Assembly: GCA_037446635.1 (NCBI GenBank)
Contig: JBBIIG010000025.1
Location: 1 to 58,334, forward strand
DNA length: 58,334 nucleotides
DNA from: a bacterium
GTDB lineage: Bacteria > Zhuqueibacterota > Zhuqueibacteria > Oceanimicrobiales > Oceanimicrobiaceae
Direction of reading: 5' to 3'
Below are positions 1-39,000 of this stretch, in pieces. Made by a program: the position numbers. Within the stretch, counting starts at the first letter, position 1. The number at the start of each line of letters is the position of its first letter.

Positions 1-3000
1 GTGTTGTTCGAGATGTTCTGATACTGTGCGGATGGAGGTGGCGCAGATGTTGAAGCCGGAACCGCCCTTCACCGGCGGCGCGTCGAATCGCGTTTGTTGG
101 TTTCCGTTTCACGATGCCAGCTCGGAGCTTTTTTCCTTTCCAGCGTCGGGATTAAAAATCGCGCAGCGGAACAGCCGATCGCAAAGCGATGAGGATTGTC
201 ACGTGATTGAAAACTTAGCAGAGGGGGTTCGCTACGGCTATTATTTGCAATCAACCTTTCTCCGCGATGGACAGCTCATGACCATACTCTCCGACACCGT
301 TTACTCCACCCAGGACAACTCCTCGCCGCCGCCTGTGAGCCTCAACGATTTTTCGGTCAGCGGCGCCGGCGACGTGACGCTGCGTTGGCGACCGCCCACC
401 GACGAGATTAGCTACATCGACAAATATATCTTAAATCGGAAGGGCGCTTCTCAAACAAATTTTTCTGCCATCGACACCTTGTCGGTTTTTCCGGTCACCA
501 ACATCGCTCCCCAAAATTATTATCCGGTCCGCATCTCCACCAGCGAAGCCATCTACTTGGATGAGACGGTGACCCTGCTGGGGGTGTCTAATTTACTGCA
601 AGGCGCGGCGATGATTAAAACCGCCGTGGCCGACCGCTGGTCTGAGCCGGAGGCATTTCTTTCTTTTAATCTTGAAGCGCCGGCCAAGATTTACATCGCT
701 TTTGACAAGCACACCATCAAGCCCACCTGGTTGGAAAGAAATTTTCGCACCACTCGCATCAACGTTCGCACCAGCAAACATCCCGATTCCCGGCTGCGGC
801 TTTGGGAAAGTCGAGAGACCTACCAGCCAGGCTTAGTTACTTTGGGCGGTAATTTTTCCGAAGTGCAGGGCCTGCCCTTCGATGCGCCGGAGATGTACGT
901 GGCGTTCATTCAGCCCGTGGGCGGGGCGTTCCCTTACGCCATCGATGGTTTGCTTAGTTATAGCGATACGCTGGGCGTGGCCAGCGACCAGCAAATATTT
1001 CAGTACCGCATCGATGCCATAGACGCCGCTGGCAACGTGAGCGAGGGCGCGGATTCGCCGCTGGTGATTTTGGATTTGCACGGCCGCTGCCGTCCGAACA
1101 TCGCCAACTGGTTTGCTTTCCGCAACCAGGCGGGGAAGGAGTTTGGCAAGGGAGTGTCAAACTCCATTTGTATTCAAGATCCGACGACCCAAGCGGAGTG
1201 CGTCGGGTTTCGCAATAGTGACTCCCTGCGTTTTCAGGCCGCGCGCCAAAACCCCGGACTTTTTGAGATTCACCGTGAGGAGGATGTCGGGGCCGTCTTT
1301 TTTGACAGCGGCTGGATCGCCGCCGCAGATTTGCCGGCGCCGCTCTGTTTCGAGTTCAATCTCCTGCCGTCCGGTCGCGACGCCAATTTTGTTAACGGTC
1401 AAACTTACTATTACCGGGTGCAGGCCAAAGACGTTCACGGCAACCTGAGCGCCTGGTCGGACACCGTTTCCGCGGTTCAAGATGCGTTCCCACCGGAGGA
1501 CATTCGCAGCCTGCGGGCGCAGAATGAAATTTTTCCGGATCAACAAAATGGCTGCGTCGCTCTGACCTGGCTGCCGGCCGCCGATCCCGTCAGCGGCGTG
1601 GGGCAGTACTATATTTACCGCAGCGACGACGGCGTTGTTTTTTCAGTCATCGACTCGCTTGCCGCCGAGCAGACCAGTTACTGCGATTCGCTGTCGAGCA
1701 TCGCGGCCAATCGCATCGTTCATTATAAAGTGGTGGCCGCCGACCGCGTGGGCAACCGCCGCCGTCTCGAAGATTCAGATCAAATCGTGACTCTGCGGGC
1801 GCTGGTGGGGCCGCACATCGAGTTGACGGACACGCCGACCATCGAGTGTCCTCCTGGTGTTGTGGCCGTGAAGAACGACACCGTCTTTGTGCGCTGGCCG
1901 GATTTCGATAATACCGGCGTCGCTCACTACGAGTTCGAGATCGCCGCGCCGGCGCAGCAGACCACCACGATCGATCTTTCACCCGGCAGCGTCAATCAAG
2001 CGGCCGTTCCGTTAACCGGCGTCGATGGTTTTTACACCTTGCGGCTGCGGGCCTTTTACATCGATGGCAGTTCGACGATTTACTCCAACCAATTGACCCT
2101 CCGCAAAAAAACTGCTTTGCCGCAGGTGCAGCTCCAGGTGCAACAGGACAGCCAGCCCACGGGCAACATTTTGCTTTCGTGGTTTCACCCCGACGGCGAC
2201 GAAATTGTCCAGTTTCAAATTTTTCACTGGGTGGAAGGCCAAAGTCCGCCGCCGCAGCCCACCATCGTGTTTCCGGGCGACAGCCTGCGCTGGGTTCACC
2301 GGTTTATCGAGGACGATCTTCTGGCGTACCAATGCAATAACTACGTGATCAAAGCCGTCGATTGTTTGGGGCTGGTTTCGGCGGGCGAACCGCCGGCGGC
2401 GCAGTACTCGAATCGCCCGCCGGTTTTCGATGCGACGCAAACGGCGATCGCTTCCGACGACATCACCGTGTGCTGGCAGCGCCCGGCGCCGCGGCGCAAC
2501 CAAGACGGCGCGTTCGAAGCGGAAGTCACCGTCTTCCGGGATTCCCTAAATTCGACGCCGCTGTTGCAGCAGCGCGTGCTCAACAAAACCTGCTTTACGC
2601 TGTTCGACGCCGCGCCCCGCCACAATTACATTTTTCAGGTGCGCGAAATCCTGCTGGAAAATTCCGGCCAAGCCTGCGCCGACAGTTTGATTAGCGGAGT
2701 CTCCACCCCGCTGATTGTTCCGCTCGACAATTTCCCGCCGCCGGTGGCGTTTGACATTCAGGCGCAGCCCGTTCCTCCCACTGCCAGCACCGGCGAAGTC
2801 TTTTTAAGTTGGCAGGGTTACCCCGGCCGCAACATCAGCCGCTTTCTGGTGACGTGGTCGGTGGTTGGTGAGACCAGCGAAGATTCGTTGACGATATTTG
2901 AAGGCGACACCGCCCGCGTCGGCGGACTGAGCATCGCCGAGAGCTATCGCTTTTCAGTTATTGCTCTCGACAATCTGGGGCAGCTTTCGCAAGACAACCC

Positions 3001-36000: not shown

Positions 36001-39000
36001 TATCTTGCCTCCAGGAATGGGGAGTCCGGCGTGCGAATCTACGATGGCGGAGGCAGGCCGCTAAGCGACTCGGAAGGAAATTATCATGCCATGACCGCTA
36101 TCGGTGAAAATTACTACGTCGTGGATCGCTCGTTAAATAAAATTAGAGTATTTAACAAGGACAGAAAGAAACTTGAGAATCTCCCGAATTTTGACGAGAG
36201 CCTATTGCACAGCCCGAGCGATATCGCCGCTATTGGCAACGAGTTATTCATCGCCAACAGCGGCAACTACAGCGTGGTTAAGTACAATGTCGAAACTGCT
36301 ACGACACAGACTTATAAATTGAGTGGGTTAGGTAGAATCGAGGGGCTGGCAGTGTTACCGGGCAAGGTGTTTTTAGCGGACTGGCTGAACAACTCCATTT
36401 ATTCCTCGAATCATGATTTCTCGGAAATCAAGGAGTTCCTTTGTCTAGAAAGGGCGCGAGAAGAAGGCATGATCGCCCCCGGTAGAATATCTGTGGTTGA
36501 TGACGATCATATCATCGTTTCCGATGTGCTCGCCAATAAGTTGTTTTTATTCCACCGCAGCGGAGTTCTCATCGAGTCGTTCGCACTCGCAAGCGATGTT
36601 TATCTTCCGAGCATGGTAACGATGACCAAAACCAAGCTCTCGGTTTGCCACGGCACGGGAATGAGCGAATATTCTTTGCAGCCGAACATCTCATTTAGCA
36701 AAGAGTTGCCCCGCTGCAAAAATGTGGATCCCGACGCCCCTCGCCGGACGTCTTCTGTTAGCGGCGCTAGCCGATTTTGTTTTTAGTATTATATTGGAAA
36801 ACTGATTAACAAAAATAACGCCACGGTGATTCCGATACCAATAACCAAAAACTTGCGGACTCCAATAATAGCGAGCGCGGGTATTTTTCGCTGGAGTTCA
36901 ACCCACATGGGCAGTACCAGTGAAAGGAGTGATAAGATGATAAGTCCTCCAATGACAACATTACCTACGATTGTTTGCAGCATAGCCCTTCCTTCATTTG
37001 TGTTGAGTGGCCCTGGACGCCAGCGCAATTACCATGATGAAATTTTTACTTACTAAATGGTAATTGGCGTTCTCTTAGCGCCTGTTAATTAGCTTTGAAC
37101 TAAAAAAACGATTAACTATCGGCAGGAATTGTGCCATTGTTTACTGATGAAACACCTGAACTTTATTTCTCGGAAATTTGTCGTAAAAACTGTATCAAAT
37201 TGAGAAACCATCTCATTTTTGTAACAGAGGGAGATTTGGTGAGAGGAGGTCGAGCGCTATGAAACACTTCCTGGGTTTGGCAATTTGGCTCTGTGCGATC
37301 CCGCTGGCAGCGGCGGCGCAGCAAAAATTCACCCTGTTGGTTAATTCGGAAAAATACCAGAATCCCGTCGTCTCCCATGAAACGATTGATGAAGACAAGA
37401 TCAGAGCCATTGTCACCGATGAAACCGGCCGCATGATTGGCGGCCTCGAAATGGGTGATTTTGAAATTCGCACCGAGCTAAACCGCGGCGTGATTTACAA
37501 AGTAGAGCCGCTGCTCCACACGGAGAAGGCGAACGTGGCGATGGTGCTGTGCATCGACAACAGCAGCTCCATGACCCGCTACGTCGGCCTGCTTAAATCC
37601 ACTCTCGACGCTTTGCTGAAGCATCTGGGGCCATCGGTTAGCATAGGCGGGGTATTTTTCAGTGAAGGCTTCCCGGGCCAGCAAAACGTAACCTTCGAGG
37701 TTCCGAAAAATATTCGGGTCTATACTTTTACTCAAAACAAAAAAAGCCTGCGCGACGCCTTTGAGAAACATCTCGCCAGCCATGCCCTGAGTTCCAAAAC
37801 CTATCTTTTTGATCAGATGTTTTGCGGAATCAAAATGTTCGAGCACATCACCGATCCGCAAACCAAAAAGTTCCTGATTATTCTCTCCGACGGCCAGGAC
37901 AACGCCAGCCAATTCAAAGAGGACGACATTCGCGGTCTGGCGGATGCTTACCCTGAGATCGTTTTTTACACCATCGACTACCTGCAGAAAACCAACCCGT
38001 TTTTACAGAATCTGGCCGTCAAATCCAGCGGGCGATATTTTCAAGCGAACAAAGCTGAAGAGTTGGCGCTTATTTTCGAAAACATCACGCAGGATATCGT
38101 CAACCTCAATGGTTACTTGATCACCTACCGCATCCCACAGGCCGAGTTAACGGGCCGGGTGTTGGCGAGATATTCCTGCGGACCGCCGCCGTCGGCCACG
38201 GTGGAGTGCCGCCCGCTGGGGCGTCCCGATTACAAAACCGAATTCAATGTGGATACGCGCGGAGTGTTCGCTGCCAACCTCGCTGTGCCCCACCGCTGGA
38301 GTGTTCGCGCTGCTGCCCCCAATCATTTGCCCGACAGCGTCATCGTGGACGCCAATGTGGAGGACCTCTACCTGGTAAACTTTAATCTGAATCCGCAAAA
38401 CGTTCTGCTCGCGGGCCGCATTCTCGATTCCGGCACCACGCCCCTGGCCGACGCCCGCGTCACCATCACCGAGCTGGCCAGCGGCCAGTCCATCTACGAC
38501 GGCGTTTCGGACTTTTACAGCTTCGAGTGCCCCTTCGGCGGCGATTTTTTGATCACCGCCACCAAAGATGGCTACTCCTTCGGCTCAGTGGAATTGACCG
38601 ACGTGACGATGGAAACCACTGTGCCGGACATCTCCCTCGGCCTGACCGCTGAGGGGTTCGTTTCCGAATTCCGATTTTTGTTTGAATTCAATTCCGACCG
38701 CCTTGACCTCAGCGACGTCGCCACCCAAACCCAACTTCGCGGCTGCGTCGATTTCGTGCAGCGCGAGCTGGAGAAAAGCGCCACTCGCATGGTGCGGCTG
38801 GTGGGCTGGACCGACAGCGTGGGCACCGTCGAATATAATTTGGAATTGTCGCGGCGGCGGGCGCAGTACATTAAAAATTATCTGACGAAATATGCCATCC
38901 CCAAAAACCGCGTGGAGACAGAGGGGAAGGGCATCAGTTTTAAATATGATAATGAAAGCGAGGAGGGCCGCGCTTTGAATCGCCGCACCGATGTGATCTT

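Follow-up and report, generated by a model that had tools for sequence, protein, structure and literature searches.

How can a type IX secretion system (T9SS) be powered if its usual motor is missing? In the textbook view, the T9SS is inseparable from the GldLM motor and the GldKN track. We addressed this question in the genome of an uncultured KSB1 bacterium (G000), focusing on a locus at the start of contig C25 in which genes for giant putative T9SS cargo proteins and PorV-family barrels adjoin genes of ExbB/ExbD type; the window is the whole stretch of this contig that was analysed, 58,334 nucleotides long. The preliminary description, in its boldest form, had read these modules as the general replacement for GldLM in the phylum.

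The first important finding is that profile searches support the presence, in this bacterium, of the outer-membrane half of a T9SS without detectable GldLM or GldN. SprA and PorU are there, as previously claimed: TIGR04189 (SprA) is over its cut-off on C58, PorU on C6 matches NF033707 with an E value of 3.8e-260 (866 bits against a cut-off of 420), and a PorV on C14 scores 172 bits with NF033709 (cut-off 90). The earlier count of 163 phylum genomes out of 167 with SprA above the cut-off was reproduced, and a second whole-phylum sample has SprA in 101/101 genomes and GldM in 0/101. Both the C-terminal sorting domain (CTD) proteins and the PorV/PorQ family had been reported, at about 100 and 18 members; our own iterated profiles put them somewhat higher, at 127 proteins carrying a CTD-like domain at the C terminus and 29-31 barrels resembling PorV/FadL. 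The GldM profile TIGR03517 found nothing in 167 genomes at E<=0.001. The earlier searches had no positive control, which is now supplied for GldM (357 bits) and GldL (96 bits) by IMG/VR contigs with gldL-gldM in the same search, and is still lacking for GldN and GldK. With that limit, GldN (PF19841) has 0/167 matches and GldK (TIGR03525) reaches 56.5 bits in G000 and at most 106.5 bits across five genomes, far under the cut-off of 350; GldL (TIGR03513) has none in the four genomes searched, including G085, which is a single contig, 100% complete and SprA-bearing. The reported lack of detectable GldL, GldN and true GldK is thus borne out. Phmmer searches with the control GldL and GldM proteins against six-frame ORFs gave a best E value of 0.59, and a scan for the transmembrane (TM) pattern of a GldL/GldM-like pair returned one unconvincing pair. 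SprA without GldLM is already in print for Ignavibacterium: excerpts of PMC11705866 describe Melioribacter and Ignavibacterium as having SprA, PorV and Plug but no other T9SS genes, a similarly motor-less core, but those excerpts neither propose an energiser nor describe an operon such as the following one. The C25 genes named earlier lie where they had been placed, all co-oriented on the + strand.

2..4297, +: module 1 giant cargo, Cys-rich, with FN3 repeats and a C-terminal type A-like CTD (fn3 7e-10, FlgD_ig 2.5e-07)
4310..7291, +: module 1 second cargo, FN3 and CTD, 993 aa (FlgD_ig 2.9e-07, fn3 4e-06)
7484..9559, +: module 1 carrier, PorV-family barrel (~25-354) and all-helical TPR domain (357-691)
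9711..11345, +: module 1 long ExbB/TolQ-family subunit (PF01618 9.7e-22; likely start 9726)
11553..12143, +: module 1 ExbD-a, with TM Asp and enlarged periplasmic domain (PF02472 2.2e-09)
12219..12791, +: module 1 ExbD-b, with TM Asp (PF02472 9.8e-09)
12788..13381, +: module 1 putative TonB-like protein (the "orphan"), with one TM helix, Pro-rich linker and TonB_C-like domain
13386..16571, +: module 1 TPR-Ig-NHL protein (NHL matches; AF2 pLDDT 89.2)
16891..21501, +: module 2 giant cargo with CTD, 1536 aa (TIGR04183 25.1 bits; 35% identity to the module 1 cargo by BLAST)
21522..23699, +: module 2 second cargo with CTD, 725 aa (FlgD_ig 6.8e-09)
23731..26870, +: two low-GC genes between cargo and carrier, 511 and 535 aa, no family match
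26882..28909, +: module 2 carrier, PorV barrel and helical domain, 675 aa (NF033709 6.6e-21)
28963..30321, +: module 2 long ExbB no. 1 (PF01618 5.1e-24; likely start 29029)
30173..31561, +: module 2 long ExbB no. 2 (PF01618 3.1e-15; likely start 30332)
31512-32282 and 32299-32886, +: module 2 ExbD pair (PF02472 2.3e-10 and 2.2e-11)
32902..33585, +: module 2 positional equivalent of the TonB-like gene, very divergent, aligned in alignment A2
33613..36786, +: module 2 TPR/NHL protein, 1057 aa (NHL E 0.0057)

The module 1 giant cargo scores 23 bits with TIGR04183, at the cut-off, and is truncated N-terminally by the contig start: its orthologues (1550-1600 aa) align from residue ~115-190 and are longer by that much. 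The second cargo is ~360 aa in many relatives, and its position immediately 5' of the carrier is conserved. C25 modules 1 and 2 represent one conserved operon type, from which the two low-GC genes of module 2 (GC 0.34 at 24-26 kb) stand apart; they are missing from the copy in G058, whose TPR/NHL orthologue matches at 6e-66. Both modules exist as described, but their tandem layout is local, the two sitting on separate contigs in G058. Module 2 had been credited with a single long ExbB, and in fact has two, a layout shared by G058, G071, L114, L116, L121 and L122.

What might such an operon do? The reading that we favour, and to which we give an even chance of being right, is that it gives one giant T9SS client a private energy chain of Ton type. 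Gene order is part of the case for it: a CTD gene lies immediately 5' of 15/30 PorV-like genes in G000, against 2.2% of other genes, and part of PMC12618676 reports the same adjacency in F. johnsoniae between cargo genes and those of their cognate shuttles. Against it, most PorV-like paralogues in G000 have no adjoining motor, so that extraction is evidently possible without a private one, and a third PorV-TPR gene, on C2, lies 3' of a 2527-aa CTD protein likewise with no motor beside it. The carrier scores, 69.2 and 75.2 bits with NF033709, also fall under the cut-off of 90, the lower one counting against this reading, although module 1 reaches an E value of 4.5e-19. The carrier fold is nonetheless PorV plus TPR as modelled: the carrier profile matches PorV in the PDB (6h3i_F, 7.4e-06) and also TPR proteins, the AF2 model (pLDDT 76.8) has PorV 8gl6_F as its best Foldseek match (1.4e-09), and the barrel aligns to both structures with TM-scores of 0.64-0.66 by target length. 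The next Foldseek matches are FadL/TodX, which would suit an uptake system in which TonB would energise the barrel as a channel and CTD proteins would bind substrate at the surface; a TPR/ExbBD/TonB cluster of F. succinogenes is read as an uptake energiser in part of PMC6851124. This is improbable in our view, given that PorV ranks first by sequence and by structure, that the barrel has no plug of a TonB-dependent transporter, and that no such transporter, SusD-like gene or catabolic gene is constant in the operon.

The motor components resemble, and depart from, the Ton system. The "extension" of 290-390 aa noted earlier in the long ExbB is real, and resolves in module 1 into a signal peptide, a periplasmic FN3 domain (whose profile matches fibronectin FN3 at 6.8e-11), TM1 and a cytoplasmic domain, followed by TM2-TM3. 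In ExbB no. 1 of module 2, the periplasmic domain is TonB_C-like rather than FN3 (TIGR01352 E 0.058 at 77-134; PF03544 E 0.0024 in an orthologue). As in Ton systems, the channel motif is intact—P460, G463, G466, T467, T504 and T505 are invariant in 24 aligned rows—and the Asp motif is kept in 45/46 ExbD-a and 44/46 ExbD-b orthologues; two enlarged ExbDs and the periplasmic domain on ExbB are differences. The small protein described as an orphan is, on weak scores, TonB-like: the top seven PDB matches of its family profile are all TonB (best E 0.001), and remain so (best E 0.06) when the member that matches TonB_C directly is removed, one relative matching PF03544 at 9e-08. Unlike in Ton systems, the SxxxH motif was found in 0/42 TM helices (His in 1/42), which also holds for the housekeeping-type TonB on C14, and the Pro-rich linker is short (median 28 aa). 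Both the weak scores and the missing motif count against the private chain. The module 2 equivalent has no family match in profile searches; by eye, it (at Cys25), L059 and L113 have lipobox-like N termini, and Cys25 may mark a lipoprotein signal.

These features also bear on a Tol-like envelope or mechanosensing unit, in which the motor would cycle the TPR-NHL protein on and off the carrier, placing or tethering a surface structure or sensing load, with no role in export. The best NCBIfam matches, all far under cut-off, are TolQ for ExbB and TolR for ExbD; the short linker and the lipoprotein-like members of a second type fit, and the pairing of TPR with beta-propeller recalls CpoB and TolB, as PorE is described in part of PMC12204202. 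We consider such a unit quite unlikely: unlike Tol-Pal, the conserved operon contains neither TolB nor a Pal/OmpA-like gene, a canonical tolQRAB cluster lies elsewhere, on C33, and the motor is constantly accompanied by a CTD cargo and a PorV-like barrel.

The distribution of the operon, for which we found no description in the literature, is broad but far from universal. The order cargo-carrier-exbB-exbD-exbD-tonB-like-TPR/NHL is kept in 52/60 loci, the other eight being cut by contig ends, with protein identities of 25-60%, and records titled Zixibacteria, Ignavibacteriales and Delongbacteria carry it too. The TonB-like gene occurs in 59/167 phylum genomes, in both classes. The preliminary description had rightly doubted universality, but for too narrow a reason, absence from other families of the order: the gene is in 35/41 genomes of families f16-f26, outside the class, and in no genome of f4, f8, f9, f13, f14 or f15. 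That SprA is so widespread without GldM or GldN, and that carrier and motor are linked by genes and by a predicted contact, could favour a general motor. This is very improbable and already contradicted: 108/167 genomes lack the TonB-like gene, among them the closed, SprA-bearing G085, in which none of the five ExbB loci examined (of six PF01618 matches) is of C25 type, and the operon is therefore not a universal energiser. Even the union with the C38-type cassette (63/167 genomes) and five type-2 genomes covers only 109/167. A better candidate for general energiser, by gene neighbourhood, is the housekeeping-type exbB found 3' of core porV in 61/107 genomes.

The predicted contact joins the carrier's helical domain, probably periplasmic, to the TPR-Ig-NHL protein, which comprises a signal peptide, a TPR solenoid (~21-700), an Ig-like domain (740-830) and an NHL beta-propeller (860-1060). 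In the complex model, the domain docks on the propeller with a score of 0.65 (runs 0.71, 0.65, 0.55), at least 90% of contacts in common and partner pLDDT of 70-81, whereas the best of three controls scored 0.00. Of solved pairs, 116/157 reach the score mark of this test, and of mismatched pairs 2/215, a calibration that is only rough because three chains and our own alignments were used; the score concerns the carrier pair only, and the TonB-like chain has no listed contact with the TPR-NHL protein. The tightest contacts set carrier Arg628 against Glu917, Trp932, Phe969 and Thr971; position 628, in a conserved R-F-[FY]-P motif (628-631), is R in 88% and K in 7%, and Glu917 is invariant; in the alignment, the module 2 carrier lacks the Arg. 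Conservation on the carrier side of the interface exceeds that of the domain as a whole (p 0.011). Two further points weigh against the private chain: the propeller side is not more conserved than its domain (p 0.24), and TPR-propeller pairs may pass by resemblance to solved complexes. The model supports binding, and with gene order in the 52 loci upholds the earlier proposal that a PorV-family carrier is tied to ExbB/ExbD.

In the private energy chain that we favour, the cargo would cross the outer membrane via the shared SprA pore and be caught by its own carrier, as CTDs and gene order suggest. The carrier TPR domain would bind the propeller, the TPR solenoid may extend as far as the FN3 ring of an ExbB pentamer or the short TonB-like arm, and proton flow through ExbB, ExbD-a and ExbD-b would pull on the carrier and its load, in the simplest case drawing them out of SprA. 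Parts of PMC10994853 state that extracting the carrier-substrate complex from SprA needs energy in Flavobacterium. The motor may also position the carrier in the membrane at a later step; the evidence fits extraction and later pulling alike. Only its own giant cargo would be served, and the other ~120 CTD proteins would need another energy source or none.

Pulling could also serve a surface-motility or adhesion-retraction machine, in which the cargo, secreted otherwise, would be an adhesin that the motor moves with its carrier along the outer membrane. Such a machine would resemble SprF-SprB on the Gld track and CglB-Glt under AglRQS. The cargo is large and FN3-rich, Pfam finds no catalytic domain in it at E<=0.01, and 14 queries taken from the flagellar locus of G085 found no flagellar export genes in G000. 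The layout of the Agl-Glt core (AglRQS, GltG, GltC/D/E), as given in parts of PMC3169522 and PMC9946355, recurs here: one type of ExbB, two ExbDs, a large TPR protein and a TonB-like arm make up a unit that connects with a surface protein and a barrel in the outer membrane. The SprF track handle is the carrier's C-terminal periplasmic part, according to a section of PMC12635249. We nevertheless think this unlikely. The operon has no cytoplasmic track or FHA-domain GltG, and NF033760 matches none of the 20 members searched; a closer Agl-Glt-like core lies on C3 (NF033760 1e-24). The long ExbBs group in a single clade (SH-aLRT 99; quick tree of 35 rows) apart from Agl-type, TolQ-type and housekeeping ExbBs, the C3 one falling in another clade, the barrel is PorV-like, and the cargo bears a CTD instead of being a lipoprotein adhesin. 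A passage in PMC3169522 also considers the core alone unlikely to drive motility. The order of cargo gene then own carrier and the C-terminal periplasmic handle are shared with SprB-SprF and with further type B cargo that uses cognate PorP/SprF shuttles (parts of PMC12618676), but here the carrier is of the PorV family, the CTD type A-like, the motor encoded in the operon, and the handle a 335-aa TPR domain instead of a short Cys tail. With the Bacteroidota T9SS—SprA-PorV translocon, GldLM, GldKN/PorKN track and PorG, in the portions of PMC10994853 and PMC12635249 concerned—it shares SprA, PorU, PorV-family carriers, type A-like CTD cargo and a proton-driven 5:2-type motor proposed to act on a carrier. 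It differs in having no detectable GldL, GldM or GldN, no GldK near the cut-off, a motor of the ExbB/ExbD family, and a TPR-NHL protein predicted to bind the carrier TPR domain in place of a disulfide-linked ring or track.

Two phylum samples with SprA but without GldM mean that extraction is driven by another motor or needs none, and the operon supplies a candidate for every link between proton channel and carrier, with a testable pair in R628 (carrier) and E917 (propeller). If this chain holds, a Ton-type motor would act on protein export or display rather than on solute uptake or Tol-Pal tethering. More tentatively, and with some doubt, we propose that ExbB/ExbD/TonB-family motors drive the T9SS outside Bacteroidia: general cargo would be served by a housekeeping exbB-exbD-exbD-tonB set behind core porV, and giant clients by private cassettes (C25, C38) with TPR adaptors. 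If so, SprA and its carriers would be older and more widespread than the GldKLMN track, contrary to the origin of the T9SS within Bacteroidota gliding machinery inferred in part of a 2025 paper (PMC12635249).

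The central observation of this analysis is an operon, found twice in the window, that joins genes for cargo bearing a type IX secretion system (T9SS) C-terminal domain (CTD) and for a PorV-family carrier to genes for an ExbB/ExbD/TonB-like motor. Nineteen co-oriented genes, the first truncated by the contig start, occupy positions 2-36786 and comprise the two copies, modules 1 and 2. These are distant from each other, with 34% identity over 191 aa for the PorV-like proteins, 37% over 153 aa for ExbB and 35% for the cargo.

Features of the window (contig C25)
2-36786: two copies of one unit: a pair of genes for CTD-bearing cargo, a PorV-like gene (675-691 aa), long exbB (one gene or two), a pair of exbD genes, a ~200-aa gene and a ~1060-aa TPR/NHL gene
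23731-26870: two low-GC orphan genes (34% GC) interrupting module 2, one of them with TM helices at the N-terminus and an end resembling a TPR
37259-53145: downstream of module 2, VWA-OmpA and VWA proteins, an ECF sigma factor with an anti-sigma-like TPR, a 1618-aa TPR-CHAT protein, a CAP protein and a PD40-OmpA (PorE-like) protein

The modelled carrier (pLDDT 76.8) is a barrel (about 25-354) followed by helical repeats (357-691); the top structural match of the model is PorV, and the carrier profile also matches PDB entries for PorV and TPRs. Look-alike clusters in the Atlas (587-790 aa, TPR families) from Fibrobacterota, Elusimicrobiota and Eisenbacteria are leads only, and an Atlas search with the internal domain of the cargo gave no usable match. 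The long ExbB carries a signal peptide, then an FN3 domain (fibronectin 6.8e-11) and then TM1; its channel-motif residues are invariant, and the TM Asp is kept in both ExbD proteins (45/46 and 44/46 orthologues). For the ~200-aa protein, at first an orphan, a 20-row family profile put TonB chains at the top of its PDB matches (E 0.001), as did a 42-row profile lacking the sole direct TonB_C match (E 0.06); the SxxxH motif occurs in none of 42 members of this TonB-like family. With a linker of median 28 aa, the TonB-like protein would be too short to cross the periplasm alone. The last gene encodes the adaptor, modelled as a TPR solenoid, an Ig-like domain and an NHL propeller (pLDDT 89.2).

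A contact between carrier and adaptor is predicted by a three-chain complex model of TPR-NHL 558-1061, TonB-like 40-197 and carrier 357-691, the last being the scored partner; the scored contact concerns the carrier only, and the construct begins after the first 557 adaptor residues. The complex scored 0.65, compared with 0.00 for the best of three controls; 116 of the 157 solved pairs attain the score mark, as do 2 of the 215 mismatched ones, a calibration that is only rough for three chains and for our own alignments. Contacts agree between runs by at least 90%, with a partner pLDDT of 70-81. In the model (numbering of the 691-aa carrier of module 1), carrier residues 577-578, 621-632 and 640-654 lie on one propeller face, and Arg628 (R in 88%, K in 7%) contacts Glu917, which is invariant, as well as Trp932, Phe969 and Thr971. 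Conservation is higher at the carrier interface than across the carrier domain as a whole (0.46 vs 0.34, p 0.011); at the propeller interface it is no higher than in the propeller domain (0.48 vs 0.45, p 0.24). No contact between the TonB-like protein and the carrier TPR domain is listed in the three-chain model, which is neutral either way. The model thus supports docking of the carrier TPR domain on the adaptor, a pass of this kind not being proof.

The operon is kept well beyond this genome. Downstream gene order is preserved in all 20 regions fetched around long-exbB matches, 19 of which have a PorV-like gene upstream, while the remaining one stops at a contig edge. In an all-species scan, whose loci overlap with these regions and include non-independent kin, 60 of 61 loci have the long exbB, with a PorV-like gene at most three genes upstream in 52 and a contig edge in the other 8. 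The same unit, or as much of it as the contig holds, occurs in records titled Zixibacteria, Ignavibacteriales and Delongbacteria, whose ExbBs fall in the same clade (SH-aLRT 99 in a quick tree, where the placement of four long ExbB rows of another type, that of contig C38, is meaningless because trimming left of them a C-terminal stretch that is not homologous). The TonB-like gene is present in 59 of 167 genomes of the phylum: 15/20 in family f1, 6/19 in f7, 2/14 in f12 and 35/41 in f16-f26, with none in f2-f6, f8-f11 or f13-f15. Family f5 carries the module 2 type (checked in one genome, G071).

The setting is a T9SS core without a detectable Gld motor. Our own iterated profiles count 127 CTD proteins and roughly 30 PorV-like barrels in the genome (97% complete), which also encodes SprA and PorU (866 bits); SprA is over the cut-off in 163/167 genomes of the phylum. 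The preliminary description had reported no detectable GldL, GldM, GldN or true GldK, and our searches agree: GldM (TIGR03517) and GldN (PF19841) gave 0/167 at E<=0.001, GldL 0 in the four genomes searched, and GldK at best 106.5 bits against a cut-off of 350 among five, the GldN and GldK models having no positive control. A Parabacteroides record with sprA, tried as a positive control, contained no gldM, and phage contigs were therefore used: a GldM motif led to two IMG/VR contigs with gldL-gldM, which score 357 bits (GldM) and 96 bits (GldL) in the same search. The GldM and GldL blanks are thus no tool fault, although these controls are typical Bacteroidia-like sequences, and analogues invisible to sequence search could still escape. 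On the phage-like contigs (L188:4533-6569 and L189), a full gldM (530 aa, 357 bits) lies directly behind a short gldL (133 aa, covering the TM part), with a head spike fibre domain (NF048003) nearby; T9SS/gliding motor genes on phage contigs were unexpected. A search by TM pattern for a divergent GldL/GldM pair yielded a single, unconvincing candidate. Nor is this phylum alone in the motor-less state: of 101 genomes sampled from the phylum of G167 (one record titled Zixiibacteriota), all 101 have SprA and none has GldM. Likewise, the accessible text of PMC11705866 already describes Melioribacter and Ignavibacterium as having SprA, PorV and Plug but no other T9SS proteins. Our phylum tallies (SprA, GldM, GldN, TonB-like gene, C14 ExbB, core PorV, C38 arm, C9) count G158 and G162, flagged unpublished, and the conclusions hold without both.

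Other units and regions of the genome
C62, L006:9093-18134: CTD cargo, PorV with FlgD-like C-terminal domain, 1040-aa TPR protein, exbB-exbD-exbD-tonB
C38, L011:3924-14635: a second kind of cassette, with cargo bearing a type B-like CTD, a PorP/SprF-like barrel carrying a FlgD-like domain, exbB-exbD-exbD, a 348-aa arm and a TPR protein
C14, L008:3137-11471: two PorV-family genes upstream of highly conserved exbB-exbD-exbD-tonB
C9, L010:7654-13093: 608-aa FliF_C-like/FliG-like protein with signal peptide, 367-aa protein, TPR lipoprotein, motA, motB
C58, L003:5815-15600: sprA region
C3, L007:3646-13100: unit resembling the Agl-Glt core, its arm GltG-like (NF033760 1e-24); present too in G085, G103, G147 and G166
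C10, L012:8218-11661: flanked by an NHL protein and a BamA-like gene, a 1147-aa protein that weakly matches the SprA model (positions 604-688)
C2, L192:1005-10648: 2527-aa CTD protein, then a third PorV-TPR gene (687 aa), no adjoining motor genes
C82: second MotB-like gene

The proposal that the C25 modules power the T9SS in general had to be rejected, because the TonB-like gene is found in only 59/167 genomes and the closed genome G085 has SprA without the module; as a universal motor they are highly improbable. Among six PF01618 matches in G085, five loci were fetched: a TPR-barrel Ton unit, tonB-exbB-exbD, a flagellar motA, the housekeeping unit linked to porV, and a unit of Agl-Glt-like kind. 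Two further candidates failed. First, the C9 unit occurs in just 24/167 genomes; 14 queries from the flagellar locus of G085 found no flagellar export genes in its host, the genome under study. Second, motor genes beside sprA are not the rule: exbB-exbD lies directly downstream in 7 of 41 sprA neighbourhoods, all from f12/f13 (L124-L130; sprA, M28 peptidase, exbB, exbD and tonB in 7/7, tonB being lost at a contig end in one), the constant neighbours being divergent lptF/lptG (34/41) and an M28 peptidase (27/41).

Among 10 MotA/ExbB matches in the genome, three units besides C25 adjoin carrier genes: C62, C38 and C14. The C38 arm is present in 63/167 genomes, in up to three copies and largely in families without the C25 type; its carrier link was checked in three genomes (G000, under study here, G147 and G166). 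The C14 ExbB (130/167 at E<=1e-45, mostly 60-90% identity) and a single-copy core PorV (133/167) are more widespread, and porV lies 0.1-6 kb upstream of the C14-type exbB on the same strand in 61 of 107 genomes with both, so that this ExbB might be the motor for the remaining cargo. However, the shared synteny amounts to a single ancestral event, unrelated GH57 and S41 peptidase genes travel with the unit, and the two genes are unlinked in 46/107, perhaps in part through contig breaks. In f12/f13 they are unlinked, and another exbB-exbD(-tonB) lies behind sprA in 7/7 regions fetched. Furthermore, 36/167 genomes have no C25, C38, type-2 (module 2 kind) or C14 link, some having the sprA-linked unit. 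The C14 ExbB type is that of the usual Ton motor for nutrient uptake in Bacteroidota, which counts against placing weight on the porV link.

Beyond the observed gene content, gene order, folds and channel residues lies the question of mechanism. The carrier would recognise the CTD of its cargo, the cargo would use the shared SprA, the adaptor would couple to the ExbB/ExbD motor, and the force would pull the loaded carrier. In the genome, 15 of 30 PorV-like genes lie directly behind a CTD gene (background 2.2%), and for Flavobacterium johnsoniae the available portion of PMC12618676 describes cargo genes followed by cognate shuttle genes, while that of PMC10994853 has the carrier-substrate complex extracted from SprA by energy; in the text available of PMC12635249, SprF is tied to the track through its periplasmic C-tail. 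The simplest reading, a private chain pulling the loaded carrier, has about an even chance of being right. That the force instead serves motility is unlikely. A Tol-like positioning role is somewhat less likely still, and uptake is quite improbable. PMC12204202, as far as its accessible text goes, raises the possibility that PorE works with a TolA/TonB-like protein and anticipates more systems with 5:2 motors; PorV is unmentioned there. We found no published description of a PorV-TPR carrier in one operon with an ExbB/ExbD/TonB motor, in a search that left most subscription journals and supplements outside (the PMC11705866 and PMC12204202 supplements may be relevant); term searches of PMC8542988, PMC5445135, PMC7323717 and PMC7031533 likewise turned up nothing pertinent. 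We rate the operon as known parts joined in an undescribed chain, whose function is putative.
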